From: Patescibacteria group bacterium
GTDB lineage: Bacteria; Patescibacteriota; WWE3; UBA101185; UBA10185
Direction of reading: 5' to 3'
Assembly: GCA_042571515.1 (NCBI GenBank)
Contig: JBHPHX010000001.1
Location: 75,508 to 111,678 of the forward strand
DNA: 36,171 nt
The notes under the pieces are model-generated. The model ran no database searches, had not been told where the DNA came from, and worked only from the letters and a program-made list of their open reading frames with translations. The position numbers and the translations under genes were made by a program. Below are positions 2,301 to 34,258 of this stretch, piece by piece; position 1 is the first letter of the stretch, and each line of letters opens with the position of its first letter.

Positions 2301-3101
<801 letters not shown>

Positions 3102-13676: not shown

Positions 13677-13714
13677 AATCAAAAACATACACGCTGTAAT
13701 TACAGGTGGAAATA

Positions 13715-13745
13715 ACTAAAATTCTAGCAAGACTAGAATTTTAGT
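13715..13745. promoter_or_regulatory. Palindromic box ATTCTAG-N5-CTAGAAT upstream of dprA
   Basis: actaaaattctag-caaga-ctagaattttagt (13-bp arms); same core at 14405 and 33803. Confidence 0.6.
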
Positions 13746-14361
13746 CTAAGGGGTCAGACCCGTACGGGTCTGACCCCGATAAGAGGTAATCTTTATAATC
13801 ACTTTTCTTATTACCAAAAAACTTGAGTATATGACATTCCTCAACAAAATCCCAATTACTCTGGCTTCCTCTACTGACATATCCGGGAGCACTAGAATAC
13901 TTATAATTCACAGAGTACTCGGGGTCGTGTGGATCTGGGTTGAGATGAATATATTTAGAAGTATGTATAAAATCAAAATCATCTTTAATTAGTCTGGCTT
14001 TATATACCCCCTGCAGTAAATGACCCGTTCTCCCACGTCTTTTGTTAAGGTAATAAGTAATACTAATGTTCAAACTGCGCATAAAATTAGACATACCTGA
14101 AATTGAACGCTGGCTCAATAAAAAGTGATAATGATTTTCCAATATACAAAAGGCAAAAAGGTTAATCTCGTTACTGTAGTTTCTAACTTGCCTGGTAGAC
14201 AGCTTGTTCCCGGCGTTTTCAATTAAATACCTTTGCAGAAGCATAAGTACAATCTCAAAGTCTTCTTCGGAAAACAAAAAGGTTTCCTTGTTAACTCCGC
14301 GGTTGTAGATATGATAAATCCCATGTTCCTTATAGTCCTTCACTGCATTCTTCGTTGGCAT
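13741..14361 (-). mobile_element. REP-associated tyrosine transposase (RAYT, Y1 HUH family)
   Basis: YHIYNRG, FAFCILENHYHFLL (HUH), RTGHLLQGVYK, KYIHLNP, YKYSS; flanked by REP-like palindromes. Confidence 0.9.
13750..13777. repeat. REP-like perfect 28-bp palindrome, copy 1
   Basis: ggggtcagacccgtacgggtctgacccc; overlaps the last codons of the RAYT (GSDPYGSDP). Confidence 0.85.
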
Positions 14362-14400
14362 GTTCTAGTGATAACACATACCCTTGTGGGAATAAATAAC

Positions 14401-14427
14401 CAAAATTCTAGTTAAACTAGAATTTTG
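14401..14427. promoter_or_regulatory. Palindromic box ATTCTAG-N5-CTAGAAT upstream of the RAYT gene
   Basis: caaaattctagtt-a-aactagaattttg. Confidence 0.6.
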
Positions 14428-14433
14428 CTCTAA

Positions 14434-14463
14434 AGGGGTCAGACCCGTACGGGTCTGACCCCT
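14434..14463. repeat. REP-like perfect palindrome, copy 2
   Basis: aggggtcagacccgtacgggtctgacccct; identical 28-bp core to copy 1. Confidence 0.85.
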
Positions 14464-14473
14464 AGGTCTCACC

Positions 14474-14502
14474 TTGACGGAATTTACATCATGATATACA
14501 CT
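14474..14502 (+). promoter_or_regulatory. rplJL promoter
   Basis: TTGACG-17 bp-TACACT. Confidence 0.7.
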
Positions 14503-14511
14503 ACCCAAGTA

Positions 14512-14550
14512 TCCAAAGACAGCAAGCATAGTGCTAAGTCTTGCCGAGGA
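14512..14550 (+). promoter_or_regulatory. Compact ribosomal protein L10 leader
   Basis: tccAAAGACAGCAAG...CTAA.tCTTGCCGAGGa resembles the AAGACAG..GG/TAA..CC.GCCGAGG core; it sits directly before the rplJ start and overlaps its RBS. Confidence 0.7.
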
Positions 14551-14556
14551 GTGAAC

Positions 14557-15081
14557 ATGCCAAATATACAAAAGCAAGAAAAAGTTAAAGAGCTAAGAGA
14601 AAAGATTGGTAAAGCCAAATCTATCATTTTTGCTGATTATCAAGGAATCAGAGTCAATGACCTCAATGAATTTAGGCAAAAAATCAAAGACAATGGCGGA
14701 GAAATTAGCGTTTCTAAAAACACTTTAATGAAAATTGCACTCAAAGAAGAGGGCGTGGACTACAAAGAGTTAGATGGCCCAATAGCAGTTATCTTTGGTT
14801 ATGAGGATGCTATCTCCCCTATTAAAACTATATACGAATATGTCAAAAAATTAGAATTACCCAAGGTCAAGGCAGCTTTCATTGATGGGGTGTATACAGC
14901 CGTTGAAAAAGTGGAGGAAATAAGCCAACTTCCTTCCAAAGAGGAACTATTAGCCAGAGTTGTGGGCAGTCTTAACACCCCAATTTCTGGAATTGTTAAT
15001 GTATTAGGTGGTACAAGAAGAAATTTAGTTACAGTCTTATCCGCAGTAGCAGATAAGCAAGGTGGAGAGGGGGTGTCTTAG
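14557..15081 (+). CDS. rplJ: 50S ribosomal protein L10
   Basis: KSIIFADYQG, VSKNTLMKIAL, LPSKEELLARVVG; AGGAG RBS. Confidence 0.96.
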   Translation: MPNIQKQEKVKELREKIGKAKSIIFADYQGIRVNDLNEFRQKIKDNGGEISVSKNTLMKIALKEEGVDYKELDGPIAVIFGYEDAISPIKTIYEYVKKLELPKVKAAFIDGVYTAVEKVEEISQLPSKEELLARVVGSLNTPISGIVNVLGGTRRNLVTVLSAVADKQGGEGVS

Positions 15082-15489
15082 ATGGCAGAAGAAATTAAAC
15101 TAAGTGCAAATACAAAAAAGATTATGGATATGGTCGAGAAAATGACCGTTTTAGAGCTTAATGACCTAGTCAAAGCGCTAGAAGAAAAATTTGGCGTTTC
15201 CGCTGCTGCTCCAGTTATGATGGGGGCAATGCCTGCAGGAAATGGCAATGGAAACAGCGAGCCTGTAGAGGAACAGAGTGAATTTGATGTGGTATTGGCT
15301 GACGCTGGTGGCAATAAGATAGCGGTTATTAAAGCCGTTAGGGAGCTTAACCAGGCGCTTGGATTGGTAGAGGCTAAGACACTTGTAGAGTCTACTCCCA
15401 AACCAGTTCTGGAGGGTGTTAAAAAGGAAGAGGCCGAGGAAGCTAAGAAAAAGCTTGAAGAAGCTGGCGGAAAAGTGGAATTAAAATAA
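15082..15489 (+). CDS. rplL: 50S ribosomal protein L7/L12
   Basis: [44 protein letters not shown]. Confidence 0.98.
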
Positions 15490-15500
15490 CGGTTATATAC

Positions 15501-15611
15501 GAAAACGAATATGTCCTACGTCACTAAGTCCTCGCAATTCTGTAACTCACTTCGTTCCTAACAGAATTAGCTGCGAAACCGTGACTTTAGGACATTCTCG
15601 TTTTCTTTTTT
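15501..15611 (+). terminator. Long (~105 nt) imperfect hairpin with T-tract between convergent rplL and galT-like genes
   Basis: Nested arms gaaaacga/tcgttttc, atgtccta/taggacat, gtcac/gtgac, tcgc/gcga, aattctgt/acagaatt; followed by Ts. Confidence 0.6.
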
Positions 15612-16579
15612 CATTTTTTTGCTTCGTCTGCGATTGTGACATTACAGCCACCATCTCCACATAAAGCTTCAATGGCCTCTCCTAAAGCTTTTGCTGCATC
15701 CTCTGGTGTGGCTTTATCACTTACCCAAATTCCAGCCCCTAACTCCAGTCCACCAAAAACCTTCAGGTGGGGTATAAACCCCATATGCCAGTGGTAAGGC
15801 TCATGTCTTTGAGTGTGAATCCAAAAGTTTCTATCTGGTTTGTCAAATAATGCGTTGTATGCACCTAAGGCTAACTTCAGGACCATCGCTAGGTCATTTA
15901 TCTCTACCTCATTAATAAAGCCAAAATTTGGCTTATGTGATTTGGGAAGAAGCATTACCTCGTAACTCCATCGGGAGGCCTCGGGTACCAAAATAACAAA
16001 GTGGCCCGAATCATAAGCAATTCTAGAACCATCTGCCAATTCCTTTTCCAGCAAATCACACCAAAAACACCTGTTGTACTCGTTAAAATAATGCAAAGCC
16101 TCCTCCTTCTCCCTTTCAATAATCCCGGGAAATCCTTTAAGTGCAACAATTTGAGAGTGGGGGTGAACTAAGGAAGCTCCGGCTTTTCCTCCCCTATTAT
16201 TAAATATAAAAACCTCTTTATCCTGACCCGTAAAGTGATGTAGCCGATTTAGAAGAGCACGAATTATCCGCACCCCCTGTTCATGGGGTAATCCCTCAAT
16301 ATCTCTATTCTCATATGGGGAGTGTACAACTATCTCATGATCCTCAAGAATGGGAAATTTATTCGGAAAAACACGCACATTCCAATCATCTGTATCTTGG
16401 TAGCTTGCTTCAGGTGTTAGGTGCTCATTTCCTTTGGCAAAAAAATCAACCTTCTTCTCTGGTTTCTTCTTTTTCTTTTTACCTCCTGCGACAGCCCCAG
16501 TCTGGTCCGCTCTTTTAGCACGGCTGGTAGCCAAAATTGTAGGATATTTTGTTAGCTCATCAAATACAAAGTTACTCAT
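15611..16579 (-). CDS. galT: GalT-family hexose-1-phosphate nucleotidyltransferase
   Basis: VRVFPNKFP, HEIVVHSP, AGASLVHPHSQ, CFWC, YHWH, GGLELGAG. Confidence 0.85.
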   Translation of the reverse strand: MSNFVFDELTKYPTILATSRAKRADQTGAVAGGKKKKKKPEKKVDFFAKGNEHLTPEASYQDTDDWNVRVFPNKFPILEDHEIVVHSPYENRDIEGLPHEQGVRIIRALLNRLHHFTGQDKEVFIFNNRGGKAGASLVHPHSQIVALKGFPGIIEREKEEALHYFNEYNRCFWCDLLEKELADGSRIAYDSGHFVILVPEASRWSYEVMLLPKSHKPNFGFINEVEINDLAMVLKLALGAYNALFDKPDRNFWIHTQRHEPYHWHMGFIPHLKVFGGLELGAGIWVSDKATPEDAAKALGEAIEALCGDGGCNVTIADEAKK

Positions 16580-17982
16580 ATGGACAGTTCTATAATTTTA
16601 TTGTATAGGTCCTTGTACTTTTTTGCACTAACTTCCCAACCAAAGTCCTCTTTCATCGCAAACTTCACCATTTGTTCGTAATCACCACTTTCCCAAACTT
16701 TAAGTGCCTCAAAAATGGCCTCCACTAGTTGTTTACTTGTATATTTTTCAAAGACAAAACCGTTGTGACCGTGTTTAACAGTATCTTTCAGCCCCCCAAC
16801 CCCTCTCACAATAGGCAAACTGCCGTACCACATAGAAATCATTTGTGTTAGACCACAGGGTTCATATTTTGAGGGAATTAGGAAAAAGTCACTTGCTGCA
16901 TAAATTTCTCTGGCTAGATCCACATCAAACATAATATTGCACGACACGTCTCCCTTCAGACCTTCGGTACTATTTAGCTTCTCAAATTTTTTCTCCCAAG
17001 TAGGACTTCCTGTACCCAGTAGAACAAACTGACCACCTTTGTGAACAATTGATGGTACAGCTTCATGCAAGATATCAAGCCCTTTTTGTCTTGGATCCAA
17101 TCTAGAAATAAAGCCAAAAATAGGTTTGTCACCATCTATATTTAACCCCAATTTGTCTTTTAAACTCTCCTTGTGTCCCTTTTTAACAGTTTTCCAATTG
17201 TCAACATTAAAATCCCTTGGAAAAACCGAGTAATCAATCCCGTTTAGAATGCCCACCAACCTATCTTTTCTGGATACTAAAACATCAGTTAGATCTATAC
17301 CAAATTCTGGGGTTTTTATCTCTTCGGCGTAGCTCTCAGAAACCGTGTTAACATAATCGCTAGTAGTCACTCCCTGCAAGAGCAAACTAATATCTCCGTC
17401 TTGGATATCCCAATCTATTAGTGGGTGTACGCCTGGGTTCAAACCCAAATCCTTAACCAATTCTGGATCCCCCTTACCTTGGTAGAGCAGGTTATGGATT
17501 GTAAACAAAGTACCCGGCCTCTCCGCGTGTAGCTCTTCATTTAATAAGTGGGTAACCATGCCGGTGTGCCAGTCGTGGCAGTGAATAACGTCGTAAGTGT
17601 TAAATCTAGCCTTGATATACTCCACTACAACCCTGCAAAAGAAAGAATACATTTCCGTCTCAGAAGCATTATTTAAAAAAGCGCTCTTGCCACCAATATT
17701 GAAATACTTAGAACTCCTAGGCAATAGCACATCTACATTAGATTTGGGTAGCTTTGTCTTAAATATCTCAACCGTGTGAGACTCTCCATCAAAAGGCACC
17801 TCTATTTCCAAAGCCTTAATAAGTTTGAACTTTACTTTTTTTATTGTGGGGTAAAATGGGACAATAACATCCGCATCAATTCCTAGACTTTCTAGAGACT
17901 TAGGTAAGGAGCCTATTACATCGCCAAGACCCCCCATCTTTACAATTGGAGCCACTTCCGAGGCAGCAAGAAGTACTTTCAT
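16576..17982 (-). CDS. glgA: Glycogen synthase (GT5)
   Basis: KMGGLGDV, HCHDWH, FTIHNL.YQG, GILNGID, PSKYEPCGLTQM, GGLKDTV. Confidence 0.93.
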   Translation of the reverse strand: MKVLLAASEVAPIVKMGGLGDVIGSLPKSLESLGIDADVIVPFYPTIKKVKFKLIKALEIEVPFDGESHTVEIFKTKLPKSNVDVLLPRSSKYFNIGGKSAFLNNASETEMYSFFCRVVVEYIKARFNTYDVIHCHDWHTGMVTHLLNEELHAERPGTLFTIHNLLYQGKGDPELVKDLGLNPGVHPLIDWDIQDGDISLLLQGVTTSDYVNTVSESYAEEIKTPEFGIDLTDVLVSRKDRLVGILNGIDYSVFPRDFNVDNWKTVKKGHKESLKDKLGLNIDGDKPIFGFISRLDPRQKGLDILHEAVPSIVHKGGQFVLLGTGSPTWEKKFEKLNSTEGLKGDVSCNIMFDVDLAREIYAASDFFLIPSKYEPCGLTQMISMWYGSLPIVRGVGGLKDTVKHGHNGFVFEKYTSKQLVEAIFEALKVWESGDYEQMVKFAMKEDFGWEVSAKKYKDLYNKIIELSI

Positions 17983-18002
17983 AAGTTATAGAGTAACACA
18001 TT

Positions 18003-19475
18003 TCACATTTGCCTAAAATTCTTCTTTGCAAAATCGCTAAATTCCTTTGGATCGTGTTCAAGATATGGTTTAACAGAGGGTATTTGCCTAGCAGTCCAAA
18101 GCTCATTTACGATATGCAACACATCATAGATATCGGTACCTTGCTTCAGCTTCAAAATCGCATCCCTCCACTTAATGGCCTTTTCAAAATCTCTCTTTTC
18201 TGCTGCTTTTTTCATCTCATCCTCAAATTCTAGAATAATTTGGTTATACCACTCTGCAGGGGCGCGCTTGTTGAAAGGCTCTTTCATATATGTACTTGAG
18301 TTTTCTAAATGCATTTTCCTAATGTGTCCAGTTCTTTGCCACTCAAACGCCTGGTCCATTATTTTTCTGTATAGATCATCCGCTTTACCTAATTGTCGCT
18401 CTGAACTCCCTAGTTTAACCAACACCTCTTTTAAGCTATATGCCCCAAATTCAATCATTTCCAAACTCCACCAGGGCTTGGCCGAGGCCCACCAAAACTG
18501 ATCAGATGCAATTGCTTTGTCCATTAATTCCCTAGCCTGTTTATAATCTTCAGTTTCTTTATCTTTTTGGGATCTAACAGCTTCCAAAACATACTCCAGT
18601 AGCTCCCATTGAAGTTTGTGAATTGGGTTGCTGGGATCCTTCCAAAGTATAAAAGAATTTTGTTCGGTATATTCATCTCCCAACCAATAATCCTGTTCTT
18701 CATTTGTCCAGGTACTCGGACGAATAGAAACCTCCTCAACGTCGTTAATGTCCAATTCGGATGTAAAACTTGAGTTCATGTGATTTAGTATGTCAAACAG
18801 TACTTTTTCATGACCAATTCTATGATGTCCGAAGGTTTCAGCATCCATAACACAGAACCAATATTTACCCTGCTGTTGTAGATCTTTCGTCTCCTTTAAC
18901 AATGATTCAACATCTCTGATAACGGCAGATAGGATTAAGGCGCTTACTCTCTTGTTTCTAAAAAACACATGTAGACCAGAGTCCTTATCCTTATAAATTT
19001 TGGTGGAAACTTCACTATTTTCCTTTTTGGCAATTTGCGGGGCAGCAATCCATTTGTACCCCATCTCTAAAACGATCTTTAATACTTTTGGGTTTACAGC
19101 CATTTCGGGTGAAAAAAACCCTTTCGGGTTATATAGGTCCCCAAATACTTCCTTATGTAGGTCGTCATTAAGTTCTATTTGTCTTTTTATCTCTTCTTCC
19201 TGTAGTAAAGGTAAAAAAGCATGGTGCATACTGCTAGAAGTAAATTCGATTTGGTTTTGTTTCGCAAGTTTTTTTATATCTTCTATAACATCTTTGTACC
19301 CATTTTCTAGAAGCAGTTTTGTTAGAACACCACTAACGTTAATAGTCACTTTAGCATTTTTATTTTTTAGTAATCCTTTGAGAAGGGGTCGGTAGCTCTC
19401 GTTTACAACCCTATCCAAAATATCAAATTGCTGGTTGTGGGGCTGATAAAAATGGAGTAAAAAACAGATTTTCAC
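18003..19475 (-). CDS. Glycoside hydrolase family 57 protein with C-terminal UvrB/UvrC-type helical hairpin
   Basis: LHFYQP, ESYRP, HAFLPL, GFFSPEMA, MDAETFGHH, SDQFWW; EMKKAAEKRDFEKAIKWRD near the C-terminus. GTG start. Confidence 0.85.
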   Translation of the reverse strand: MKICFLLHFYQPHNQQFDILDRVVNESYRPLLKGLLKNKNAKVTINVSGVLTKLLLENGYKDVIEDIKKLAKQNQIEFTSSSMHHAFLPLLQEEEIKRQIELNDDLHKEVFGDLYNPKGFFSPEMAVNPKVLKIVLEMGYKWIAAPQIAKKENSEVSTKIYKDKDSGLHVFFRNKRVSALILSAVIRDVESLLKETKDLQQQGKYWFCVMDAETFGHHRIGHEKVLFDILNHMNSSFTSELDINDVEEVSIRPSTWTNEEQDYWLGDEYTEQNSFILWKDPSNPIHKLQWELLEYVLEAVRSQKDKETEDYKQARELMDKAIASDQFWWASAKPWWSLEMIEFGAYSLKEVLVKLGSSERQLGKADDLYRKIMDQAFEWQRTGHIRKMHLENSSTYMKEPFNKRAPAEWYNQIILEFEDEMKKAAEKRDFEKAIKWRDAILKLKQGTDIYDVLHIVNELWTARQIPSVKPYLEHDPKEFSDFAKKNFRQM

Positions 19476-20692
19476 AGTTTTCCTTCAATTTCTGCGACTT
19501 TTTCAGCTATGCCGGAAGTATCCTGACCTATTCTGGCATACTTTTCATACTGGGCCAGAATTTCTCTAATTATCTCTGGGTTGTAGAGATTTTTCCCCAT
19601 GATTTCTTTTTTTGAGGCCCACCAAAATTGATCACTATTCATAAGTTGTAAAACTAATAATTCTTTAGAAATATCTTTCTCAAAAACCTCATTTTGTATA
19701 GAGCCTAACTTTTCTGTATCCCAAATTGGGAACGCTCCTAAATTCTCAATAACTTCTGTTGGGGTTTCCGGCTTGTAATTTTCTAAAACTTCATTTAACA
19801 AATTCCACAGCTCGTCCTGTACCTCGCTCCCAGAATTTACCCAAAATGGATAAATATTTCCATCGGAAATATCCTCTAAGGAAGCCCCCCAGGTGGACTC
19901 TGCTATATTATTGACATTTTGATTAACGCCATCCCCCATTGCTTGAGAAACCGTTGTCATATTTATTCCGAAATTTTCACACTCACTTAATAAACCCTCC
20001 AGGACATAAATCCCCTCTTTATAGTGATGTCCAAAATATTCCGCATCCAGCGCTACTACGGCAATATCTTTTATTTTTTGAGCCTCCGAAAGAATGTCAT
20101 GAACATCTGTGTCGCGTTTAAATGAAATTAGGTTACTCAGTCCTGTGTGTCTGACTGCAATTTTTATCTGTGAATCCTCCAAGTTTAGAAAGGCTTTGTC
20201 CCGTTTTTCTACGGCAACAGAATCCACCAAAACCCACTCGTACCCCAAGTCATTTAAGACTCGTACCACAGATTCGGATACTGCCAATTCGGGCGGGAAG
20301 AATCCTCTTACATTTTTAACTAAAATGGCGTCCTCTCCCTCAAAACCCTTATGGTTACCAAAATAAAATCCCAGACCATACTCATTTAATAAAATTTGCT
20401 TCTCTACCGCCCAATCTGGCATTTTCGGCAACAGGGCGTGGTAAGCCGCGCTTGAAACCAACTCAATAGAACCAGTCTCTGATAGTTCTTTGATTGAATC
20501 TAGGAACTCGGAATATCCATGCTTGTGGAGTTGATAAATTGTGCTAAGTGGAATACTCAATGTTACAGATGCGTGTTTGTTGTTTTTTAGGAACCGTACT
20601 AAAGGCAAATACGAGGCATCAGCAATCTTCCTAAAGACTTTTGGGTCTTGAAAGGAGGGTTGATACATATGCAAGACAAGAGCTAAATTCAC
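19472..20692 (-). CDS. Glycoside hydrolase family 57 protein
   Basis: LHMYQP, YHALLP, GFFPPELA, LDAEYFGHH, SDQFWW. GTG start. Confidence 0.85.
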   Translation of the reverse strand: MNLALVLHMYQPSFQDPKVFRKIADASYLPLVRFLKNNKHASVTLSIPLSTIYQLHKHGYSEFLDSIKELSETGSIELVSSAAYHALLPKMPDWAVEKQILLNEYGLGFYFGNHKGFEGEDAILVKNVRGFFPPELAVSESVVRVLNDLGYEWVLVDSVAVEKRDKAFLNLEDSQIKIAVRHTGLSNLISFKRDTDVHDILSEAQKIKDIAVVALDAEYFGHHYKEGIYVLEGLLSECENFGINMTTVSQAMGDGVNQNVNNIAESTWGASLEDISDGNIYPFWVNSGSEVQDELWNLLNEVLENYKPETPTEVIENLGAFPIWDTEKLGSIQNEVFEKDISKELLVLQLMNSDQFWWASKKEIMGKNLYNPEIIREILAQYEKYARIGQDTSGIAEKVAEIEGKL

Positions 20693-20714
20693 AGAGTGAT
20701 TATACCAAAACGAA

Positions 20715-20816
20715 CAAAAAATCCCAGAGTTTGTCCTGGGAGAGACCGTCTCATATTCTCCTGCCCACAGAATAAGAGACGTTAACGTCTAACCCAGGAC
20801 AAGCCCTAGGATTAGT
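20715..20816 (-). ncRNA. Candidate ~100-nt rod-shaped small RNA
   Basis: Own near-consensus promoter; nested pairing aatcc/ggatt, ttgtcctggg/cccaggacaa, agac/gtct, cgtctc/gagacg, tattct/agaata; ends in a U6 tract. Confidence 0.55.
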
Positions 20817-20822
20817 GCAGTC

Positions 20823-20851
20823 AGTATAGCAAATGTATATAGGTCTGTCAA
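20823..20851 (-). promoter_or_regulatory. Sigma70 promoter of the candidate sRNA
   Basis: Minus-strand TTGACA-17 bp-TATACT with an extended TG. Confidence 0.75.
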
Positions 20852-20854
20852 ATA

Positions 20855-22387: not shown

Positions 22388-22434
22388 GGTCAGATTGTAC
22401 CATAAAGTAGTCTGAAAAGCTTTAACCGCGGGCG

Positions 22435-23373: not shown

Positions 23374-23419
23374 ATATAAATGAAACCATTAGGCATTAAA
23401 CATGTCAATTAGTTTCGGG

Positions 23420-24310: not shown

Positions 24311-24312
24311 TT

Positions 24313-25317: not shown

Positions 25318-25412
25318 ACGTGTATTATATCAAGTTCGGTTTTCCTTTCATAACGGTAAGAAACTACCAAATTTCCAGAGAAAATAGAATTTTGGTATGG
25401 TAAAATCCTTTT

Positions 25413-26570: not shown

Positions 26571-27222
26571 CTTCTATTAATTTAGCGGTCACTACTAACC
26601 TATTAAAGGTGGTTCCAGGTGGATGGCAGGTTTGTAATGTCAAAATAGGTTCAATAACAGCTCGATCTATTGGGTTCACATTCCAACCCTTTACAACTTC
26701 CGAATTTACAACTTCATATACATAAATGTCTCTCTCAAAAAAGATGTGAACCCTATCCCCTATCTCCAGTTTCCTAAGCAAATTAAACACGTTTGCATAT
26801 TTACCCAATCTCCAAAAATTGAGGGAAGCATGAGCAAACAAGTAGGTGTTGCCTGGATTTTTAGAGGGATATTTGGAAACAGAGGCATGTGCAACTCCCC
26901 ACTTCAATGCTTCTAGATAAGCTTTCTCGTTTGTTACCGGCACATCTACTACGATGGGAACATTCACACCGATTTTTTCAATCACAATAGAGAAATCTTT
27001 ATTTACGGGCTTAATAGATATGGGCCGGGTGGTCAAAAATCTGGCGAAAACACTGTCTTCTTGTGCCGTGTCATCTTCCAATCTGAGCTCTTGGTTTCTA
27101 AACTCTTTTAGGCGGAACCAAACCTCGTCAATGATAAGCGGGCCAAAAGCGAATAGCAGGAATACAATTCCTATGAAGGTGAGTAGGTTGGGAATATATT
27201 TTTTGTATTTTGTCAGGTTCAC
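26542..27222 (-). CDS. Sortase-family protein
   Basis: N-terminal TM, GVAH, PGNTYLFAH, FNLLRKLEIGD, LTLQTC.PPGT...R catalytic motifs. Confidence 0.9.
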   Translation of the reverse strand: MNLTKYKKYIPNLLTFIGIVFLLFAFGPLIIDEVWFRLKEFRNQELRLEDDTAQEDSVFARFLTTRPISIKPVNKDFSIVIEKIGVNVPIVVDVPVTNEKAYLEALKWGVAHASVSKYPSKNPGNTYLFAHASLNFWRLGKYANVFNLLRKLEIGDRVHIFFERDIYVYEVVNSEVVKGWNVNPIDRAVIEPILTLQTCHPPGTTFNRLVVTAKLIEVNEAQQYIN

Positions 27223-27267
27223 ACAGATATTATATCAGGACCTTATGTTAAAATAACGGCTGTACCT

Positions 27268-27342
27268 GCCTCCGTAGTTAAATGGATATAACAAGCCCCT
27301 CCTAAGGGCTAGTTACAGGTTCGATTCCTGTCGGGGGCACCA
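27268..27342 (+). tRNA. tRNA-Arg(CCT)
   Basis: GCCTCCG/CGGGGGC acceptor stem, AGCCC-CT-CCT-AA-GGGCT anticodon arm, GGTTCGATTCC T arm, CCA end. Confidence 0.95.
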
Positions 27343-27464
27343 TGATTCAACAGGCTCACTGCAAGTGGGCGTGGTGAATCATAATGTCCCTGGCTAGGAC
27401 TGAAGCTAGCAGGTTCATACTTCTGAGGTATTCCGAAGAAGGTAGCGAAACGCAGTTTCGCGTC

Positions 27465-27514
27465 TTCCTGTCGGGGGCACCATGATTCAACAGGCTCACT
27501 GCAAGTGGGCGTGG
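27465..27514 (+). repeat. Exact 50-bp duplicate of the tRNA-Arg 3' end and trailer (27325-27374)
   Basis: ttcctgtcgggggcaccatgattcaacaggctcactgcaagtgggcgtgg occurs twice, 140 bp apart. Confidence 0.9.
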
Positions 27515-27536
27515 CGAATAATAAAGTTTACAAAAT

Positions 27537-27624
27537 GGAGGGGTGCGAGAGCGGTTTAATCGGCTGGTCTTGAAAACCATGCGTCCTAACGGACACGAGG
27601 GTTCGAATCCCTCCCCCTCCGCCA
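27537..27624 (+). tRNA. tRNA-Ser(TGA)
   Basis: GGAGGGG/CCCCTCC acceptor stem, TGGT-CT-TGA-AA-ACCA anticodon arm, long variable arm, GGTTCGAATCC, GCCA end. Confidence 0.95.
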
Positions 27625-27983
27625 GTGGAATTTCATACAATACCCCATTTACACTCACTAAAAATATGGTATGTTAAGTCATAGAAATAAGAGAATATAT
27701 TTCCTATTTAGGCTCTATAAATGATTAGATAGGAAAAGGAAATATATATAAGGAGCCTGAGAAAGCCTCATATCCTTATTATTACCATATTTTGTCATAC
27801 TGACAATCTAGGCGGGTATCCTCCATTATTTGGACCCCTCAAATGTGCTTGAAAGCATCTTGCTAGCTTTATCCTTAGAGATCTTTACAAGTATATGGTG
27901 ACAAGCTATCGTATTCTTGTAAGGATTTGGAAAAATAACAATCTACGGGTGCTTGGGGGCTATTTCAGATTTAGGTAGAAATG

Positions 27984-28565
27984 TCAGTATGAATAAAGGT
28001 CTTCGTGTACTCGTTTATAGTCTAATAATTCGTCTTTTTTAAACCAAAGTTTGATCTCTTCCTCAGCTTCATCTGTCTCCCCCGAGGCATGTATTAAATT
28101 CAAGACTCCTCTCTTCCTTTTCATACTAGTCAAGGCGGAATCTAGTCCAAAATCCCCCCTTATAGTCCCTGCGGGGGCTGTATCTGGATAAGTAGAACCA
28201 ACTATAATTCTAATTTTACTGACAGCGTTGGGCCCTTCAAAAACAAAAGCCATAACGGGCCCTAAATCAAACATTTTATATAACCACTCGTTCACTTGTT
28301 TTCCGATCTCTTCCGCATCTTCGGTTCCAAAAATATCCTTGGCATCTAAACCAAAGGTCTTACAGTCCTTCAAGTTAAATTCCCCAACCTTCTTATGCCA
28401 TTTACTATCTTTTTTGTAGTGCTTTCTAACCACTTCGGAATCTGCCCGCAAAAGCTTTGCACCAATTATTTTTAGTCCTGCTTTTTCAAATCTGGAAATT
28501 ATTTCACCGGCAATTCCACGTTGAACGGCGTCGGGTTTTAGTAAAACTAAGGATCTTTCAATCAT
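27984..28565 (-). CDS. ndk: Nucleoside diphosphate kinase
   Basis: ERSLVLLKPDAVQRG, GTIRGDF, NLIHASG. Confidence 0.95.
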   Translation of the reverse strand: MIERSLVLLKPDAVQRGIAGEIISRFEKAGLKIIGAKLLRADSEVVRKHYKKDSKWHKKVGEFNLKDCKTFGLDAKDIFGTEDAEEIGKQVNEWLYKMFDLGPVMAFVFEGPNAVSKIRIIVGSTYPDTAPAGTIRGDFGLDSALTSMKRKRGVLNLIHASGETDEAEEEIKLWFKKDELLDYKRVHEDLYSY

Positions 28566-28586
28566 GGGATTGATGTTAACAAAAAT

Positions 28587-29624
28587 TTACTCTTCCAACA
28601 AGATCTCAACAATATTAAATTTGCCTTCCTCATCTACTTCCAGTATAGAAAATCTAGGCGATTGCAGCCCTCTTGAAGGATCAATTGCCCCCACAACAAT
28701 ATGTTCCAGGGTGCTTCTTTCGGGATCTATAGAATTACTAGACCTATGATGGTCGGCAGCAACCACTCCCCTCACCTTTGAATTTCTTAAAACCTCCAAG
28801 ATCTCTTCTCTCTGGGAAGCAATATCCTCATCCTCCTCGCCATTAACGTACCCCATAACCGGACTTACAACAGAAACAATTGGGCTAAAAACAGGCTGGG
28901 CTAATATAACAAAATCTGCGTCTGTCACTTCATTTCTAAACCAGGCTATGCTGTCCTCAAAAATTGGGGTGTGATTGGCACTATTGTCGAGAATTACAAA
29001 CTTGTTGCCCTCAATAGTTATCGTCGTATTGGATCTTCCAAAAACTTGGGTAAAATTCTCCCAAGGATCATCTTTGTTCGCCCCATCTGCCAGATCATGG
29101 TCCCCAGGCAGCACACTGTAACTAAGCCCACTGTTATCCAATACAACCTTAGCCTCTTGTAGGGATTCTAACTCACCATAGTTCGTGGCATCTCCCAGAA
29201 AGAATACGTGGTTCACACTATTCGTTTTTGCCATATGAAGGGCTTTAGTTAGCTGGGCATTGTCATCATGAGAATCTCCCATAAGAGCAACCTTAAAGAT
29301 GGGCTCTGTTACCGTTACTGGCCTGGAATCTTTCCCATCCCTCTCGCTTTGGGAAGAAGATACACTTGGGGCGATACTCGTGTTCATCACCCTTTCTGCA
29401 AAACTACCTGCAACCTGTCCCACTCTTTCCTCCGATAAACCCAGTCTAGCTAAAATAGGGCTGGATATACGCACAATCTTGTCTGTATCTAAATCTGAAA
29501 CTCCCCTTACAAATAGTGAGACCGCAAGAACAAAGGCAGAAAGAATAACAATAGAAAGAATAGATCTTGAAAATCTTGAAAATATTCCCGTTCTTCTTTT
29601 GCGGTATGTTCGTCTCTTGACCAT
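28587..29624 (-). CDS. Membrane-anchored calcineurin-like metallophosphoesterase
   Basis: N-terminal TM; GDSH, LGDAT, PGDHD, ADHH motifs. Confidence 0.82.
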   Translation of the reverse strand: MVKRRTYRKRRTGIFSRFSRSILSIVILSAFVLAVSLFVRGVSDLDTDKIVRISSPILARLGLSEERVGQVAGSFAERVMNTSIAPSVSSSQSERDGKDSRPVTVTEPIFKVALMGDSHDDNAQLTKALHMAKTNSVNHVFFLGDATNYGELESLQEAKVVLDNSGLSYSVLPGDHDLADGANKDDPWENFTQVFGRSNTTITIEGNKFVILDNSANHTPIFEDSIAWFRNEVTDADFVILAQPVFSPIVSVVSPVMGYVNGEEDEDIASQREEILEVLRNSKVRGVVAADHHRSSNSIDPERSTLEHIVVGAIDPSRGLQSPRFSILEVDEEGKFNIVEILLEE

Positions 29625-29669
29625 GGTAATTACATTTTAACAAAATGGTAGCGGGTGTGCCCATCCGCG

Positions 29670-31406
29670 TCACATTTTATCAACTGTTCTTATACCCAGC
29701 AAACCCAGGGCGTTTTGTAGCACTTGGGCACTGGCCCAAACCAAATGTAGCCTAAACATCTTTTGATCCTCATCCTCAGTCCCTAATACAGGCACACTGG
29801 CATAAAAAGAGTTAAAACTTTGTGCCAGCTCAAAGGTAAAGTTGGCAATCAGGTTTGGGGCAAATCTTTCCCCTGCCTCTTCTACCACTTCCTGAAACTG
29901 ATACATAATCCTAAGCACATCTTTCTCCCTTTCCTCCAAAGGAACGTCAATAGGGGAGTAGTCGTTAAACATTTCCTGGGTAAATCCAGCTTTTTCCAGT
30001 ACGGACTTAGCCCGAGCATAGGTATACATCAAATACGGGCCTGTATTACCCTCAAATTTGGTGGCAAGATTATAGTCAAATACCACATTTTGTTTGGGAT
30101 CAACTCGCAACATACCATATCTATAAGCTCCTATGGCTACCTTTCTTATAATTTCCCCAACATCTGGTAAATCAGATTCAACCTCCTCTTCTTCTAGTTT
30201 TGTTAGCTTCTCAAAAACTTCGTCTGCGTCCATAACTAAACCCTTTCTAGAGGACATCTCACCTTCTGGGAGACTTACTGTGCCATAGGAAACGTGGTGA
30301 AGTCTGTCAGCCCATTCATAGCCTAAAGCCTTAGCTATTTCAAAAAGTTGCTTAAAATAATCAGATTGTCGGTAGTCGACTACATATAACCTTTTGTCGA
30401 ATTTGTATTTTTCGAAACCATCTCTTGCCATATCAATATCTTGTGTAGCGTAAACCGAAGTTCCGTCGCTTCTTAACAACACCTTATCCGGAAGGCCAAG
30501 CTTTTCTAGCCTTGCAATGACTGCCCCAGTCTCATCCTTTTCGGCAATACCGTCATTTATTGCCTTTTGTACCACCTTCTTGCCACTTTCCTTATAATCG
30601 CTTTGGTAGAACCAAACATCAAACTCCGCTCCCTCGTTTGCATAAGTCTCCTTCCAGCCTTCGTATACCCAACCTGTTATCTTTTTCCATAAATCTATTG
30701 TTTCTTCCTCTCCAGCTTCCAAACTCCTGAATAGCTCCGTTACCTTTTCTTTCAACTCGGGATCTTTTTCCTCCTCTTGGGTATATTTGACATATAACAT
30801 CCCAACAAAGTGGTCGGGTTTTCTATCTGGTTTCTGATTCTCAAAATGCATTTTGTACATGAGCATAGACTTACAAATATGTGTGCCCCAATCATTCATA
30901 TAATTAGCTTTGACCACATCATAATTTAAAAACTCAAAGATATTCGCTAGGGAACTACCAAGAAAGTTATTTCTAGAATGACCAATGTGTAAAGGTTTGT
31001 TTGGATTGGGTTGGGAGTACTCAATTAACACAATTTTTTGGTCACCAGTATCGCTGGACCCATAGGAAGTTGGGTTGTTTGACACTTGGTAGGGTAAATT
31101 CTTTAACCAATTATCGGATAATTTGAAATTTATAAAGCCGGGTGACGAGCACTCTATACTCTCAAAAATGGGGTACTTGTCTTCAAGAAACTCAAACTCC
31201 ATATCAAAACTGTGTAGCTCATAGCACAGTTTTTTGGCAATATCCATTGGTGACTGATTGAGTTTCTTTGTCAGGGTAAGTGCAACGTTTGTTGAGAAAT
31301 CACCGTGGATTTTGTTGTCGGGATGCTCAATAAGTACAATCTCTAATGCAATATCAAACGCATTTTTGACTGATTCTATTACTTTTTGCTCTAAATAGTC
31401 CTTCAT
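29670..31406 (-). CDS. argS: Arginine--tRNA ligase
   Basis: GDFSTN, PGFINF, EYSQPNPNKPLHIGH, MSSRKG, FEGNTGPYLMYTYAR. Confidence 0.96.
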   Translation of the reverse strand: MKDYLEQKVIESVKNAFDIALEIVLIEHPDNKIHGDFSTNVALTLTKKLNQSPMDIAKKLCYELHSFDMEFEFLEDKYPIFESIECSSPGFINFKLSDNWLKNLPYQVSNNPTSYGSSDTGDQKIVLIEYSQPNPNKPLHIGHSRNNFLGSSLANIFEFLNYDVVKANYMNDWGTHICKSMLMYKMHFENQKPDRKPDHFVGMLYVKYTQEEEKDPELKEKVTELFRSLEAGEEETIDLWKKITGWVYEGWKETYANEGAEFDVWFYQSDYKESGKKVVQKAINDGIAEKDETGAVIARLEKLGLPDKVLLRSDGTSVYATQDIDMARDGFEKYKFDKRLYVVDYRQSDYFKQLFEIAKALGYEWADRLHHVSYGTVSLPEGEMSSRKGLVMDADEVFEKLTKLEEEEVESDLPDVGEIIRKVAIGAYRYGMLRVDPKQNVVFDYNLATKFEGNTGPYLMYTYARAKSVLEKAGFTQEMFNDYSPIDVPLEEREKDVLRIMYQFQEVVEEAGERFAPNLIANFTFELAQSFNSFYASVPVLGTEDEDQKMFRLHLVWASAQVLQNALGLLGIRTVDKM

Positions 31407-31436
31407 AACACCTCATACGATACATTTATAATACCT

Positions 31437-32150
31437 TCAATCAATAAAAACCTCAATACTTCCTTCCATGTCTGTTCTTAGAACCTCACATTCAATTTCC
31501 CTTAAAAAACTTAATACTTCTTGGTGGGGGTGACCATACATATTTCCTTTACCTACAGGGATTAGGCAGTATTTTGGACGAAGATGTAGCAGGAATTCCT
31601 TATTTAACGCGTTTTTTGCACCATGATGTGGAACCTTATAAACTTCCAAAGGACCGTCAATGTAGTAATCCAATCTTTCCATATTTATATAACTCTGGCC
31701 CTCGCTTTCTAGATCACCCATAAAAAGTGCCTCAAAGTTTCCATAATCTAACAGTACAATAATAGATGAGTTATTTTCGTCACAAGTTTTACAAGGCTGA
31801 AAAATTACAAGCGTGACATCCCCCCATTTGTAGACAGATTTTTGTGGCCACCCAAGCTTGCAATATGTAGAAAGTCTCTCCAACCCCCGCTTATGATCCG
31901 CATGGGGGTGGGTGAGTACCACCAGATCCAAATTGCATGTTCCGAAAGGGGACTCTTTCCTCAAATGTCTAGAGATTTCATAGTTTGGCCCGCCGTCAAT
32001 AAGAGCTTTTCCCCAGGGAGTTCTTATATAAACTGCATCCCCCTGACCTACATCAAAAACCCTTATTGAGAACGGGTGGTTTTGATTACGGAGGGTATAA
32101 ACCCCTATACAGAAGCAGATGAGAAATAAATACACTTTTACTTGCGACAT
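31437..32150 (-). CDS. ComEC-associated metallo-beta-lactamase-fold nuclease (stand-alone)
   Basis: FDVGQGDA, LIDGG, LTHPHADH, NNSS, LFMGD, KVPHHG, YGHPH, RTD. Confidence 0.88.
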   Translation of the reverse strand: MSQVKVYLFLICFCIGVYTLRNQNHPFSIRVFDVGQGDAVYIRTPWGKALIDGGPNYEISRHLRKESPFGTCNLDLVVLTHPHADHKRGLERLSTYCKLGWPQKSVYKWGDVTLVIFQPCKTCDENNSSIIVLLDYGNFEALFMGDLESEGQSYINMERLDYYIDGPLEVYKVPHHGAKNALNKEFLLHLRPKYCLIPVGKGNMYGHPHQEVLSFLREIECEVLRTDMEGSIEVFID

Positions 32151-33136
32151 TTTACTAACATAAAGACAAAAAAGTAGTAAATAATAAGAAATTTCAACCC
32201 AATTGTAATGCCAATTGAGGCGTGAGGCACTTTGGAAAAAAATTCCACAACGGTGGTGAAATACTCCAGAGGCATGTACGCTAGTAGTCCTACAGCCTCA
32301 TTAATAATCGGTATAGCTCCCACCATAATTAACACTCCACCAAGAATTGTTGTCAACGGCACAGTCCAGAGGATAAGAAAATTAACTAAAGGTGAAATCA
32401 GACTTATCGTACCAAAGCTGTACGAAATCAACGGCCAAACCAGCACCTGGGCCGCCAGGGTGGCACTTAAATCCTCTATTAACACCCCCTTAGCCTCTAA
32501 TCTCTTTTCTAAGAAGCTTTGAACTGGATTAGCAAATAGGACCAGGCCCAGAGTGGCTAGGAAACTGAGTTGAAAGCTCAATGAAAACAAATACAGGGGA
32601 TTGATTACAAGCATAACTAGGGCCGAAAATACAAGAACAGCTTGGACAGGGATCTTGCGTCCGTAGTACTTTCCTAAGGTAAAAATACTACCCATTATCC
32701 AAGCCCTAATAACCGGGGGGTCAAATCCGGAAATTACCGCGTATCCAAGAGTGCAAATTACCGCAGGTAATAAATTTTTTATTTTGTAAGGTTGGCCGAA
32801 GATTCTAAAGATCAGAGTGTAGACCAAACTAATATTGAACCCGGAAACAACTACGACGTGGATGGTCCCAGTTTCTCGAAGCATGTCGTTAAACGTAGGT
32901 AAGAAGGAAAAATAATTGGCACCAATTGTCATCCCTAACAAAAGCTCGCTATGTGGGCTAGGTAGTAAACTATTCACGACTTCTTGGGAATATTTATGAA
33001 CATCCTCAACCCATTTGTATGACGAGTCTCCCCTATCCTGAGACATAATCACACAATTTTTGAGGGATCTTTGGCATACATTGTCTAGTCTGAAAAGGAC
33101 AAAAATAACCAAAAAAGCAAAAATAATTTTACTCAT
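32138..33136 (-). CDS. comEC: ComEC/Rec2 competence membrane domain
   Basis: GTIHVVVVSGFNI, PPVIRAWIM, NP.YLFSLSFQLSFLATLG. Confidence 0.9.
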   Translation of the reverse strand: MSKIIFAFLVIFVLFRLDNVCQRSLKNCVIMSQDRGDSSYKWVEDVHKYSQEVVNSLLPSPHSELLLGMTIGANYFSFLPTFNDMLRETGTIHVVVVSGFNISLVYTLIFRIFGQPYKIKNLLPAVICTLGYAVISGFDPPVIRAWIMGSIFTLGKYYGRKIPVQAVLVFSALVMLVINPLYLFSLSFQLSFLATLGLVLFANPVQSFLEKRLEAKGVLIEDLSATLAAQVLVWPLISYSFGTISLISPLVNFLILWTVPLTTILGGVLIMVGAIPIINEAVGLLAYMPLEYFTTVVEFFSKVPHASIGITIGLKFLIIYYFFVFMLVKCRK

Positions 33137-33758
33137 ATACCAGATCTTTTTTTATATCCTCCAAAGTAGAGGCCTTAACGCCCGACTTTTCTTTTAGGCT
33201 TTCAAAATCGGCGTACGGTCGATTATCAACTATTTTCTGAGCGTAGGTAGGCCCAATACCTGGAAGACCATCTAATTCCTCCATTGTTGCCTTGTTTACA
33301 TTCAATTTCCCCGTTTTGGTACTAGGTTCCTCTAAGGGTGTCGTCTCGGGAATGTCAAATTCGAGGGGTATAATATCGTAAATTTCCTCATTTATGATAT
33401 CCCACTCAAATGGAACGTATACTTTCTGTCCGTCTTCAAGTTTGGAAGACAAATTTAGATTCTTTGAAACCCACTCTTTAGAAACCTGAGTTTGTATTCC
33501 TTCCCCTTGTTTTAGCAGATCCACAACTAGAGAGCTGTCGGGCAACTGGTATACCCCTGGCTTATTTACTGCACCAGATATATCTGCAAATATATAACCT
33601 CCCACTCCCTCTGAATCTACGCAAATCTCTTTTTTAGAGAACACGTATTTGGAAAGTAGCAAGGAAACAAAAACTCCACCTAAAAACAAGGATACAGGAT
33701 AAATGTAAATATATTTTGTAGAAATAGTTTGGAGTATTTTAGCCAGGGATATATCCAT
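33129..33758 (-). CDS. comEA: ComEA DNA receptor (TM, SLBB, HhH)
   Basis: ADISGAVNKPGVY, NLSSKLEDGQKVYVP, LNVNKATMEELDGLPGIGP. RBS before the ATG at 33758. Confidence 0.92.
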   Translation of the reverse strand: MDISLAKILQTISTKYIYIYPVSLFLGGVFVSLLLSKYVFSKKEICVDSEGVGGYIFADISGAVNKPGVYQLPDSSLVVDLLKQGEGIQTQVSKEWVSKNLNLSSKLEDGQKVYVPFEWDIINEEIYDIIPLEFDIPETTPLEEPSTKTGKLNVNKATMEELDGLPGIGPTYAQKIVDNRPYADFESLKEKSGVKASTLEDIKKDLVYE

Positions 33759-33799
33759 GTCCCCTACCCTGACATACAAATATATATTAGGGAAGCACC

Positions 33800-33824
33800 A
33801 ATATTCTAGTTAAACTAGAATATT
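33800..33824. promoter_or_regulatory. Palindromic box ATTCTAG-N5-CTAGAAT upstream of comEA
   Basis: aatattctagtt-a-aactagaatatt; the 19-bp core is identical to the 14405 copy. Confidence 0.6.
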
Positions 33825-33909
33825 AATTAACGCATATTCCCCGCAAACCTACCCCTATTATGGACTTGTAAGTAACATTATTCCCGCATATTTCCCGCGA
33901 AAGGTTTAC

Positions 33910-33961: not shown

Positions 33962-34258
33962 CTAGTTACCTTCCATTGCCTTTATTAGTATTTCCTCAAA
34001 AGCAGGGTTTTTCTTGAGATCTTTTATCAAGGAGACGAATCTCGCCTCGTTGAGTTTATAAAAGACCTCTCTACCTCTTTTATTATTTTTCAGAAATCCA
34101 AGTGAAGCCAAAACTCTAAGGTGGTGAGAAGCTAGGTTCTCCTCCACATTTAGCTTGTCTGCCACCCAACTTACGTTCTGGGGGCCTTCACTCAGGAATC
34201 TTAAAATTTTTAGCCTGTTCTTGTCGGAAAAAGCCTTTGAAATTTTTTCCTGATTCAT
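33962..34258 (-). CDS. ArsR/SmtB family transcriptional regulator
   Basis: KAFSDKNRLKILRFL, ASHHLRVL, RGREVFYKL. Confidence 0.9.
   Translation of the reverse strand: MNQEKISKAFSDKNRLKILRFLSEGPQNVSWVADKLNVEENLASHHLRVLASLGFLKNNKRGREVFYKLNEARFVSLIKDLKKNPAFEEILIKAMEGN

Follow-up and report, generated by a model that had tools for sequence, protein, structure and literature searches.

A conserved palindrome upstream of competence and recombination promoters in one WWE3-type family of Patescibacteria, with a radC-linked XRE protein as candidate regulator

The CRP-S/Sxy (TfoX) system of the Pasteurellaceae, Enterobacteriaceae and Vibrionaceae uses a palindromic activator site, TGCGA-N6-TCGCA, upstream of the core promoter and controls dprA, comM, radC, ssb, comEA (comE1), comEC (rec2) and comF. 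In Bacillus subtilis, the dedicated competence activator ComK acts at K-boxes, paired AAAA-N5-TTTT motifs upstream of the -35 hexamer, and also drives recA and ssb. The streptococcal alternative sigma factor ComX (sigma-X) recognizes the cin-box, an asymmetric -10-type element, before comEA/EC, comF, dprA, radC, recA, ssb and a murein hydrolase gene. We know of no cultured member of the WWE3-type family of Patescibacteria discussed below. Natural competence has been demonstrated experimentally in the Saccharibacteria (Cell 2023, PMC10633639); the portions of that paper considered here ask how widely competence extends over the Patescibacteria and name no regulator. Our literature searches found no description of a competence regulator, or of the palindrome motif described here, in the Patescibacteria. 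The element in question, ATTCTAG-N5-CTAGAAT, lies upstream of the competence genes dprA and comEA and of a RAYT-like transposase gene in a stretch of 36,171 nucleotides from a WWE3 genome (GenBank assembly GCA_042571515.1, contig JBHPHX010000001.1, positions 75,508 to 111,678), referred to below as the window. The sequence comparisons point to sites for a dimeric transcription factor, likely an XRE protein encoded beside radC, that likely activates a competence (DNA-uptake and recombination) regulon in one WWE3-type family, a reading that we hold as probable.

The motif matches the window at exactly three places, 13721-13739 (palindrome 1, ATTCTAGCAAGACTAGAAT, with arms out to 13716-13744), 14405-14423 (palindrome 2) and 33803-33821 (palindrome 3, ATTCTAGTTAAACTAGAAT), and none of 100 dinucleotide-preserving shuffles of the window contained any match. 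The genes dprA, RAYT-like and comEA are all on the minus strand, each ATG reading as CAT on the plus strand (13674-13676, 14359-14361 and 33756-33758), and the cores lie 45, 44 and 45 nucleotides (nt) from these codons, as a first-pass annotation of the window had stated. The longest open reading frames (ORFs) begin farther upstream, at ATG 13688 for dprA and TTG 33779 for comEA; promoter geometry and comparison with relatives support a preference for the starts at 13676 and 33758. With a spacer such as TTAAA the box becomes a perfect palindrome of 19-25 base pairs (bp) around a single central base, a shape more in line with a dimeric DNA-binding protein than with an RNA stem-loop. The source assembly of the window (G000; 557 kb, 31 contigs, 75% complete) holds one further exact copy, at C5:18791 (four in total; none for the backward control pattern), and about eight degenerate copies with the common flanks ACCAAA/TTTGGT. 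These extended flanks are genome-specific, being replaced by ATAT in G007, a member of the same family but of another genus.

To place the site relative to promoters, the 61 family genomes were searched for each gene and the best 30 loci were read. A strict rule required at least 8 of the 10 palindrome positions and TT 9 nt after the palindrome, within 250 nt upstream of the start codon; its chance expectation is 0.03 per 250 nt in the source assembly (equal in the reversed control) and 0.07 in the pooled loci, true sites included. Upstream of dprA, the palindrome (at least 8 of 10 positions of TTCTA-N7-TAGAA) is present in 24 of 30 loci, ending 43-45 nt before the start codon in 20 of these, and the strict rule holds in 24 of 30. 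A profile of the 24 dprA regions, anchored on the palindrome alone with no selection on the -35, reads tTCTAnTnnnAnTAGAa at positions 0-16 and then T 1.0, T 0.92 and G 0.54 at positions 26-28, a -35 hexamer that starts exactly 9 nt after the palindrome. It continues with TAnnTT at positions 49-54, corresponding to a -10 hexamer after a 17-nt spacer, and the start codon follows at about positions 61-63, 6-7 nt after the -10. This arrangement has no space for a Shine-Dalgarno sequence and the mRNAs are thus predicted to be leaderless. The rule also holds in 20 of 30 comEA loci (15 of them at 43-45 nt from the start) and in 24 of 30 recA loci, where the palindrome, the 9 nt, the TTG and a good -10 are all retained. 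Together with radC (18 of 27 loci), these counts bear out the conservation in relatives by which the first-pass annotation had proposed to check the motif. What is conserved, however, is a 17-bp core, tTCTA-N7-TAGAa, shorter than the motif of the first-pass annotation.

The distance to the start codon was the second feature to require revision. The recA genes have Shine-Dalgarno leaders, and their palindrome lies anywhere from 35 to 109 nt from the ATG with the spacing to TTG fixed; the fixed distance therefore belongs to the promoter and not to the start codon. The 45, 44 and 45 nt seen in the window are real, and their apparent constancy arises because a rigid promoter geometry is combined with leaderless mRNAs. 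The general arrangement is palindrome, 9 nt, -35 TTGnnn, a 16-17 nt spacer and a TAnnnT -10, so that the centre of the palindrome lies near -53. The exact composite TCTA-N7-TAGA-N10-TTG has 273 matches in the 61 family genomes versus 46 for the backward control, and 8 versus 5 in five non-family genomes. The strict rule found the site in none of the recA promoters of 10 genomes from nine other families of the same class. By these comparisons, the regulon is a feature of one family in the genomes sampled.

In many dprA, comEA, radC, arsR, MerR-like and RAYT genes of the family, a -10 hexamer precedes the start codon by 6-7 nt and a Shine-Dalgarno sequence is lacking. The close -10 and the missing Shine-Dalgarno sequence together predict leaderless mRNAs, widespread in the family. 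The recA and lexA genes have GGAGG-type leaders. No paper on leaderless mRNAs in the Patescibacteria was found, as judged by title.

Copies of the site in the source assembly neighbour radC with its divergent XRE gene (C2:105830), comFC (C4:3080; Pribosyltran and double zinc ribbon domains), a second RAYT-like gene (C1:53369 and 53430), rmuC (C5:18760 and 18791), rpsF-ssb (C1:37162) and, in the window, mreB and a PEGA-domain gene (25372); one copy lies within comFC. Among 40 relatives the exact 19-mer occurs only in G007, at eight sites (backward control 0), all of them before or between genes. These sites belong to recA-recX, to dprA-comM divergent from a MerR-like gene, to radC divergent from an XRE gene, to a RAYT-like gene, to rpsF, to a secreted 203-residue protein, to a large secreted protein with an M23-peptidase-like region divergent from a polyamine-synthase-like gene, and to a LAGLIDADG-type ORF within a 23S rRNA gene insertion. 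Composite matches followed in four more genomes added further members. The comFC site recurs in G007 and G071, with a leader of about 77 nt as in the source assembly; the site before the secreted M23-type protein recurs in G045 and G071, which makes three genera with G007; a yraN-like nuclease gene has the site in G071 and an intron endonuclease gene in G070. Overall, the targets comprise comEA-comEC, comFC, dprA-comM, recA, radC, rpsF-ssb, rmuC and the yraN-like gene. The first-pass annotation had named comF, pilin, recA, ssb and radA as genes before which the motif might be enriched, and the three of these five that were examined, comF, recA and ssb, carry it. Its suggestion of an operator for an undescribed competence or DNA-damage regulator is likewise supported by the same promoter position before dprA, comEA, recA, radC and comFC in many genera.

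The protein that we favour as the regulator is encoded outside the window. P0001 (C2:105534-105821 in the source assembly) is a 95-residue XRE protein with an HTH_3 domain (PF01381, E 8.9e-13; E 6.8e-15 for the G007 orthologue), and its orthologues are 69-109 residues long. Searches by sequence against solved structures returned weak matches, the best at E 1.7e-6. The gene was found in 60 of the 61 family genomes; the 10 genomes searched from other families gave only two weak matches. In 27 of 30 loci the XRE gene stands next to radC and is transcribed away from it, and the 54-100 nt between them contain the palindrome in 20 of the 27. The 9-nt geometry faces radC in 18 of the 27 loci, often 44-45 nt from the radC start, and on the other side the palindrome lies 0-9 nt from the called XRE start, where it overlaps the XRE -10 (TAnATT/CTAG) and the predicted start site. 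The spacer contains two interleaved sigma-70 promoters with TTGCAA -35 hexamers on opposite strands; since each -35 sits inside the spacer of the other promoter, polymerase can probably use only one at a time. On these comparisons we lean towards the XRE protein as the regulator.

The two interleaved promoters of the XRE-radC spacer are read from a highly conserved element, CAATATAGGTTATTGCAAT-ATAT-ATTGCAATAT (L009, L026-L055; C2:105822-105893 in the source assembly). The repeat ATTGCAAT-N4-ATTGCAAT of this spacer was considered as a separate operator and set aside, because the source assembly keeps only its TTGnnA halves, which serve the two interleaved -35 hexamers.

A second line of evidence for the XRE protein comes from another family (f4), whose XRE-like genes are not beside radC. 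Four of five f4 loci have one or two exact TCTA-N7-TAGA palindromes before the ATG, against an estimated chance expectation of about 0.005 per region; the motif thus goes with the XRE gene. The f4 recA promoter lacks the site, from which only self-regulation may be ancestral. In the f4 genomes G029, G040, G084, G077 and G080, two tandem TCTA(C)-N5-7-(G)TAGA copies were seen at about -62 and -40, and G029 has an ArsR-type gene no more than about 1 kb from its XRE-like gene. Covariation of motif and regulator is uninformative because the TCTA/TAGA core and the recognition-helix region of the XRE protein are both nearly invariant.

In the mechanism that we propose, a dimer would bind at -61 to -45, on the same face of the helix and 9 nt from the -35, where it would contact RNA polymerase and activate transcription. 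Activation is the sign that we think probable, as rigid upstream placement usually has this outcome with class-I activators, ComK and CRP-S. Within the XRE-radC spacer, a single bound dimer would switch radC on and shut the XRE promoter, following the logic of the lambda PRM/PR pair, and the XRE protein would in this way activate radC and its other targets while limiting its own synthesis.

Several observations weigh against this proposal or limit its reach. The genomes are related and not independent, and the counts come from the best 30 loci of 61 genomes per gene, with start codons assigned by a simple in-house rule. The loose 10-position motif alone is not enriched genome-wide in the source assembly (1249 matches versus 1348 in the reversed control at 8 or more positions, 128 versus 142 at 9 or more, and 14 versus 4 at 10 of 10); only the composite with the -35 is informative. 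The rpsF-ssb site of the source assembly lies 39 nt, not 9, from the nearest good -35, its topA, mreB/PEGA and comFC-internal copies fall outside the standard geometry, and in the window both comEA and RAYT have weak predicted -10 hexamers. A sensor domain is absent from the XRE protein. An ArsR-type gene is tightly linked to comEA, in 29 of 30 loci, and its product is equally conserved (54-79% identity). Finally, the core promoters are fairly good (TTGnnn, TAnnnT) and have no obvious need of an activator, so a repressor would fit them too.

A repressor as the alternative keeps the site and the regulon and changes the sign. The circuit would be SOS-like or DdrO-like, with the XRE protein repressing recA, ssb, dprA, radC, the mobile-element genes and itself until it is inactivated on a DNA signal, perhaps by RadC. 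XRE repressors paired with proteases are known, as in ImmR/ImmA and DdrO/IrrE. The content of the regulon (recA, ssb, rmuC, radC, transposase, homing endonuclease) resembles that of DNA-damage regulons, the good -35 and -10 hexamers and the sensorless XRE protein paired with radC would be accounted for, and the overlap of the site with the -10/start region of the XRE gene is what autorepression would look like. The JAMM residues of RadC (H-N-H-P...S...D, the JAB/MPN metalloprotease motif) are invariant or nearly so, in keeping with a protease partner. However, a repressor needs no single rigid position outside the polymerase footprint, and in more than 70 promoters of several gene families the site keeps its distance of 9 nt upstream of the -35 and in no case covers the -35 or -10 of the target; moreover, comEA, comEC and comFC are uptake genes, not repair genes. 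We regard this circuit as possible but rather unlikely, and a repressing sign overall as unlikely. A different change to the proposal would leave the promoter data as they are and replace the XRE protein by the ArsR-type protein (33962-34288), which the first-pass annotation had listed among its local candidates, or by another regulator. Winged-helix ArsR dimers bind palindromes, and the gene, directly upstream of comEA and unusually conserved, belongs to the ancestral dprA-comM-arsR-comEA-comEC cluster. The arsR promoter itself (TTGAAT...TGTATATT, leaderless) has no recurrent palindrome at a fixed place, whereas the XRE gene carries the site on another contig and XRE-like genes have the motif in family f4 as well. 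Two genomes of another family, in which the recA promoters are without the site, encode ArsR orthologues of 62-65% identity in a different context. Proteins of the ArsR type nearly always repress, a role that fits a site at -53 poorly. The ArsR protein is therefore the weaker candidate, and we consider it quite unlikely that it, or a further regulator, binds the palindrome.

The remaining explanations assign the palindrome to something other than a dedicated competence factor. As a promoter element, TAGAAT could serve as a -10, in a bidirectional promoter or in an alternative-sigma site like the ComX cin-box: it resembles TATAAT, a consensus scan of the minus strand gives TAGACT-16-TAGAAT and TTTAGA-18-TAGAAT, an ATG about 45 nt away would be compatible with a short leader, and the cin-box TACGAATA has GAATA in common. 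TAGAAT as a -10 was rejected because the sixth arm base varies (TAGAG, TAGAC and TAGAT are common, and A at position 16 reaches only 0.5) and because a separate TTG...TAnnnT promoter stands downstream at fixed spacing; dyad symmetry, too, is not a property of sigma-factor elements, and this explanation is very improbable. The box might instead be part of a mobile repetitive extragenic palindromic (REP)/RAYT repeat or of a terminator hairpin, with no regulatory role. Two of the three window copies do lie in a duplication with a REP-like hairpin flanking RAYT, and the copies of the source assembly fold as RNA at -13 to -17 kcal/mol, one of them flagged as terminator-like, share the extra flanks ACCAAA/TTTGGT and include one inside comFC. 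Yet only two of five GGGGTCAGACCC hairpins adjoin a palindrome, and many copies separate divergent genes, where no transcript ends. In most genera the 7 nt of the spacer cannot pair with one another, so that only a 5-bp stem could form, and the spacing to the -35 is fixed. RAYT homologues were found in 14 of 61 genomes and the palindrome stands at orthologous dprA, comEA and recA promoters (20-24 of 30) where no RAYT was found; together with the finding that 2 of about 12 sites in the source assembly adjoin a REP hairpin, this answers the concern of the first-pass annotation that the motif might always be attached to REP copies. We give a purely repeat-borne box hardly any weight. The least probable explanation, with next to no weight, is a LexA (SOS) operator of the WWE3-type lineage. 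Its appeal lies in the recA and ssb targets and in a LexA homologue found in 57 of 61 family genomes (209 residues with an S24 peptidase domain in the source assembly). The lexA promoters, however, meet the strict rule in 2 of 30 cases, about chance, and have a repeat of their own, TTGACA being followed by two TTCGGTA and an inverted TACCGAA over the -35/-10 (C9, L021 2104-2200 in the source assembly; L274-L303). At least two copies of TTCGGTA/TACCGAA were counted in 19 of 30 lexA regions versus 1 of 30 for recA and none of 30 for dprA and for comEA; by this repeat-count test, recA lacks the lexA-promoter repeat in the WWE3-type family. The palindrome, for its part, ends 9 nt upstream of the -35 in dprA, comEA and recA and does not overlap the -35, the -10 or the start. 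A 2017 study by Sanchez-Osuna, Barbe and Erill in Environ Microbiol reportedly treats the SOS network of the Patescibacteria and may bear on recA regulation.

The ArsR protein may have a target of its own. Between arsR and the comEA palindrome are two pairs of GCGGKAAW direct repeats phased by 11 bp (minus-strand sense; plus-strand coordinates 33826-33844 and 33880-33898), placed about -150/-139 and -86/-75 relative to the comEA start. Three or more copies are present in 25 of 30 comEA loci, and the strict tandem form occurs once in the source assembly and not in the reversed control. The repeats may be the target of a second, comEA-specific regulator, with ArsR as a candidate and a more natural one there than at the palindrome. 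A MerR-like protein, encoded divergently from dprA, was also considered as the regulator of the palindrome and set aside, the palindrome being 8-77 nt from its start with no fixed geometry.

The duplication in the window bears on how the three original sites are counted. Positions 13710-13777 (copy A; -35 region, palindrome 1 and the REP-like hairpin GGGGTCAGACCCGTACGGGTCTGACCCC at 13750-13777) and 14394-14462 (copy B; palindrome 2 and a REP-like hairpin at 14435-14462) are about 90% identical by local alignment over 68 bp. The dprA and RAYT sites thus stem from one duplication and are not independent evidence, although all three sites are real. The alignment indicates that one was copied from the other, the dprA site from the RAYT promoter module or vice versa. 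The GC-rich hairpin GGGGTCAGACCC occurs five times in the source assembly, and only the two copies flanking the RAYT gene adjoin a palindrome; its shorter core GGTCAGACC occurs 12 times, and the hairpin behaves as a dispersed REP/RAYT-type repeat. In relatives the gene order is a MerR-like gene divergent from dprA-comM-arsR-comEA-comEC, and a MerR-like protein is encoded beside dprA in 17 of 30 dprA loci. This is the ancestral order. In the source assembly the MerR-like gene adjoins arsR-comEA-comEC, and dprA-comM lies 20 kb away beside the RAYT gene. The RAYT-associated 68-bp duplication seems to have supplied the site to the relocated dprA-comM operon, and comEA kept its own site or gained one. 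A near-perfect copy with an ACCAAA flank inside the comFC coding sequence (C4:3666-3684), devoid of promoter-like geometry, hints at duplication as a way for the extended 31-bp form to spread.

Mobile genes recur among the targets. RAYT homologues are present in up to four copies per genome, and in 13 of 20 RAYT loci a palindrome (at least 7 of 10 positions, by eye) lies 43-46 nt before the ATG; the strict rule holds in 8 of 20, and a genome-specific hairpin usually stands just upstream of the palindrome. The RAYT-like Y1 genes and the homing endonuclease of the 23S intron have the same palindrome-plus-promoter module as dprA, recA and comEA, and would thus be expressed when single-stranded or foreign DNA enters the cell. 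This can be combined with the XRE-radC pair into a wider reading in which selfish DNA is plugged into the competence switch, RadC (a JAB metalloprotease fold, long enigmatic) would tune the XRE regulator as the second part of a two-part module, and RAYT-linked duplication of the module would rewire genes into the regulon, as apparently happened to dprA-comM in the source assembly. We offer the combination tentatively, as possible rather than probable.

The 23S rRNA gene of G007 (L012 1519-5239) has an insertion of about 800 nt with the LAGLIDADG-type ORF, whose palindrome (3001-3019) is in standard geometry. The flank of the intron endonuclease module, AAGTATCTTG / AAAGTATCTTG, recurs in G070, G014, G041, G044 and G046 and in the non-family genome G026; with one genome outside the family among them, the module may travel with the intron. 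At the polyamine-synthase-like gene (BpsA_C and AdoMet decarboxylase domains; C1 of G007, and G070), the palindrome lies over the predicted -35/spacer, and in G007 it also stands in standard geometry to the divergent M23-protein gene, possibly a second case in which activation of one gene is coupled to repression of the gene divergent from it. In the source assembly, a 70-nt fragment (C4, L017 2962-3032, minus strand) matches the transfer-messenger RNA (tmRNA) model with 33.5 bits, short of the gathering score; it is 40 nt away from the comFC-proximal palindrome and 2.5 kb from a full tmRNA gene (C4:52-440), and may be the remnant of an integration site. Two short stretches with no long ORF, C1:37190-37390 and C5:18810-18890, follow the palindromes at C1:37162 and C5:18791 in standard or near-standard geometry and have terminator-like hairpins. 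One of the two could encode a 56-residue peptide, and an Rfam search (E up to 0.01) matched no family in either stretch, returning only rRNA, tRNA and tmRNA.

The features of the window fit this general scheme to different degrees. The predicted dprA promoter (13684-13712, minus strand) consists of the -35 TTTCCA (13707-13712), a 17-nt spacer and the -10 TATGTT (13684-13689), 7 nt from the ATG at 13676, and would give a leaderless mRNA by analogy with the anchored profile of the 24 dprA regions. It serves dprA (12819-13676, minus strand; Pfam DNA_processg_A and DprA_WH) and, downstream, a comM-like Mg-chelatase/AAA gene (11303-12973, minus strand; Pfam), the listed ORF of which overlaps the end of dprA; the order dprA-comM is also found in G007. 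The RAYT-like gene (13741-14361, minus strand; Pfam Y1_Tnp, IS200-type transposase, E 8.5e-6), whose final codons pass through the hairpin of copy A, has a predicted promoter with the -35 TTTATT (14391-14396) and a weak -10 TATCAC (14368-14373). A degenerate copy of the palindrome, TTTCCAGAGAAAATAGAAT, with perfect ACCAAA/TTTGGT flanks (25372-25390), lies between mreB (start 25317, minus strand) and the PEGA-domain gene (start 25413, plus strand) and lacks the usual 9-nt geometry. The predicted comEA promoter (33766-33794, minus strand) has the -35 TTCCCT (33789-33794), 17 nt and a weak -10 CAGGGT (33766-33771), 7 nt from the ATG at 33758, this geometry being assigned by analogy with relatives. 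It precedes comEA (33129-33758, minus strand; Pfam) and comEC, which is split, on the same strand, into two ORFs overlapping by 13 nt with the Competence domain (32138-33136) and the metallo-beta-lactamase domain (31437-32150; both Pfam). Upstream of comEA are the ArsR-type gene (minus strand; Pfam HTH_5, helix-turn-helix) and, on the plus strand, the homologue of the MerR-like membrane protein (34332-34982; tblastn, 47% identity to the G007 protein). Elsewhere in the window, a 2541-residue ORF (3335-10960) joins an N-terminal MerR-type helix-turn-helix to FG-GAP repeats, which is unusual in a giant surface-type protein.

Within the scope of one family and of computational, comparative evidence, these observations define a concrete candidate point of control over DNA uptake, made up of a 17-bp site, a promoter of rigid architecture, a short target list and two candidate proteins, testable together in a heterologous host. 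The promoters would provide ready-made regulated and leaderless parts for future genetics in WWE3-type bacteria. In addition, radC is given a regulatory neighbourhood, and the RAYT and intron endonuclease genes offer a clean example of mobile genes that share a regulon with host genes.

The comparison with described systems extends from the proposed regulator to the regulon as a whole. Lambda CI at OR2/OR3 (PRM/PR), of the Cro/CI type, shares with the candidate the HTH_3 family, a 17-bp dyad operator and the logic by which one dimer would activate one promoter, shut the divergent one and limit its own synthesis; unlike CI, the site here is near -53 rather than -42, and the regulon is chromosomal, cellular and spread over several operons. 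DdrO/IrrE of Deinococcus, with its radiation/desiccation response motif (RDRM), and ImmR/ImmA of ICEBs1 also place a small XRE protein beside a metalloprotease-like gene and control recA, ssb and mobile genes. They are, however, repressors with operators over their promoters, the protease is of the COG2856 type and not RadC/JAB, and the motif is another. The CRP-S/Sxy system controls an almost identical gene set through a palindrome that likewise lies upstream of the core promoter, but its motif differs, cNMP-binding (PF00027) and TfoX (PF04993) domains were each found in none of five family genomes although control genomes matched, and the candidate here is an XRE protein. ComK is likewise an activator acting upstream of the -35 with recA and ssb among its targets, but its K-boxes are of another form, and the ComK domain (PF06338) was absent from G000, G071, G070 and G017 and gave only one marginal, partial match in G007 (23.9 bits, model positions 5-62 of 152). 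The ComX regulon even has a counterpart for its murein hydrolase in the secreted M23-peptidase protein of three genera, but depends on an alternative sigma factor, in place of a dyad at about -53 beside an ordinary -35/-10. Judged from sequence comparison, the gene set thus closely parallels the CRP-S/Sxy, ComK and ComX regulons, whereas the cis-element, its placement and the family of the candidate regulator differ from all three.

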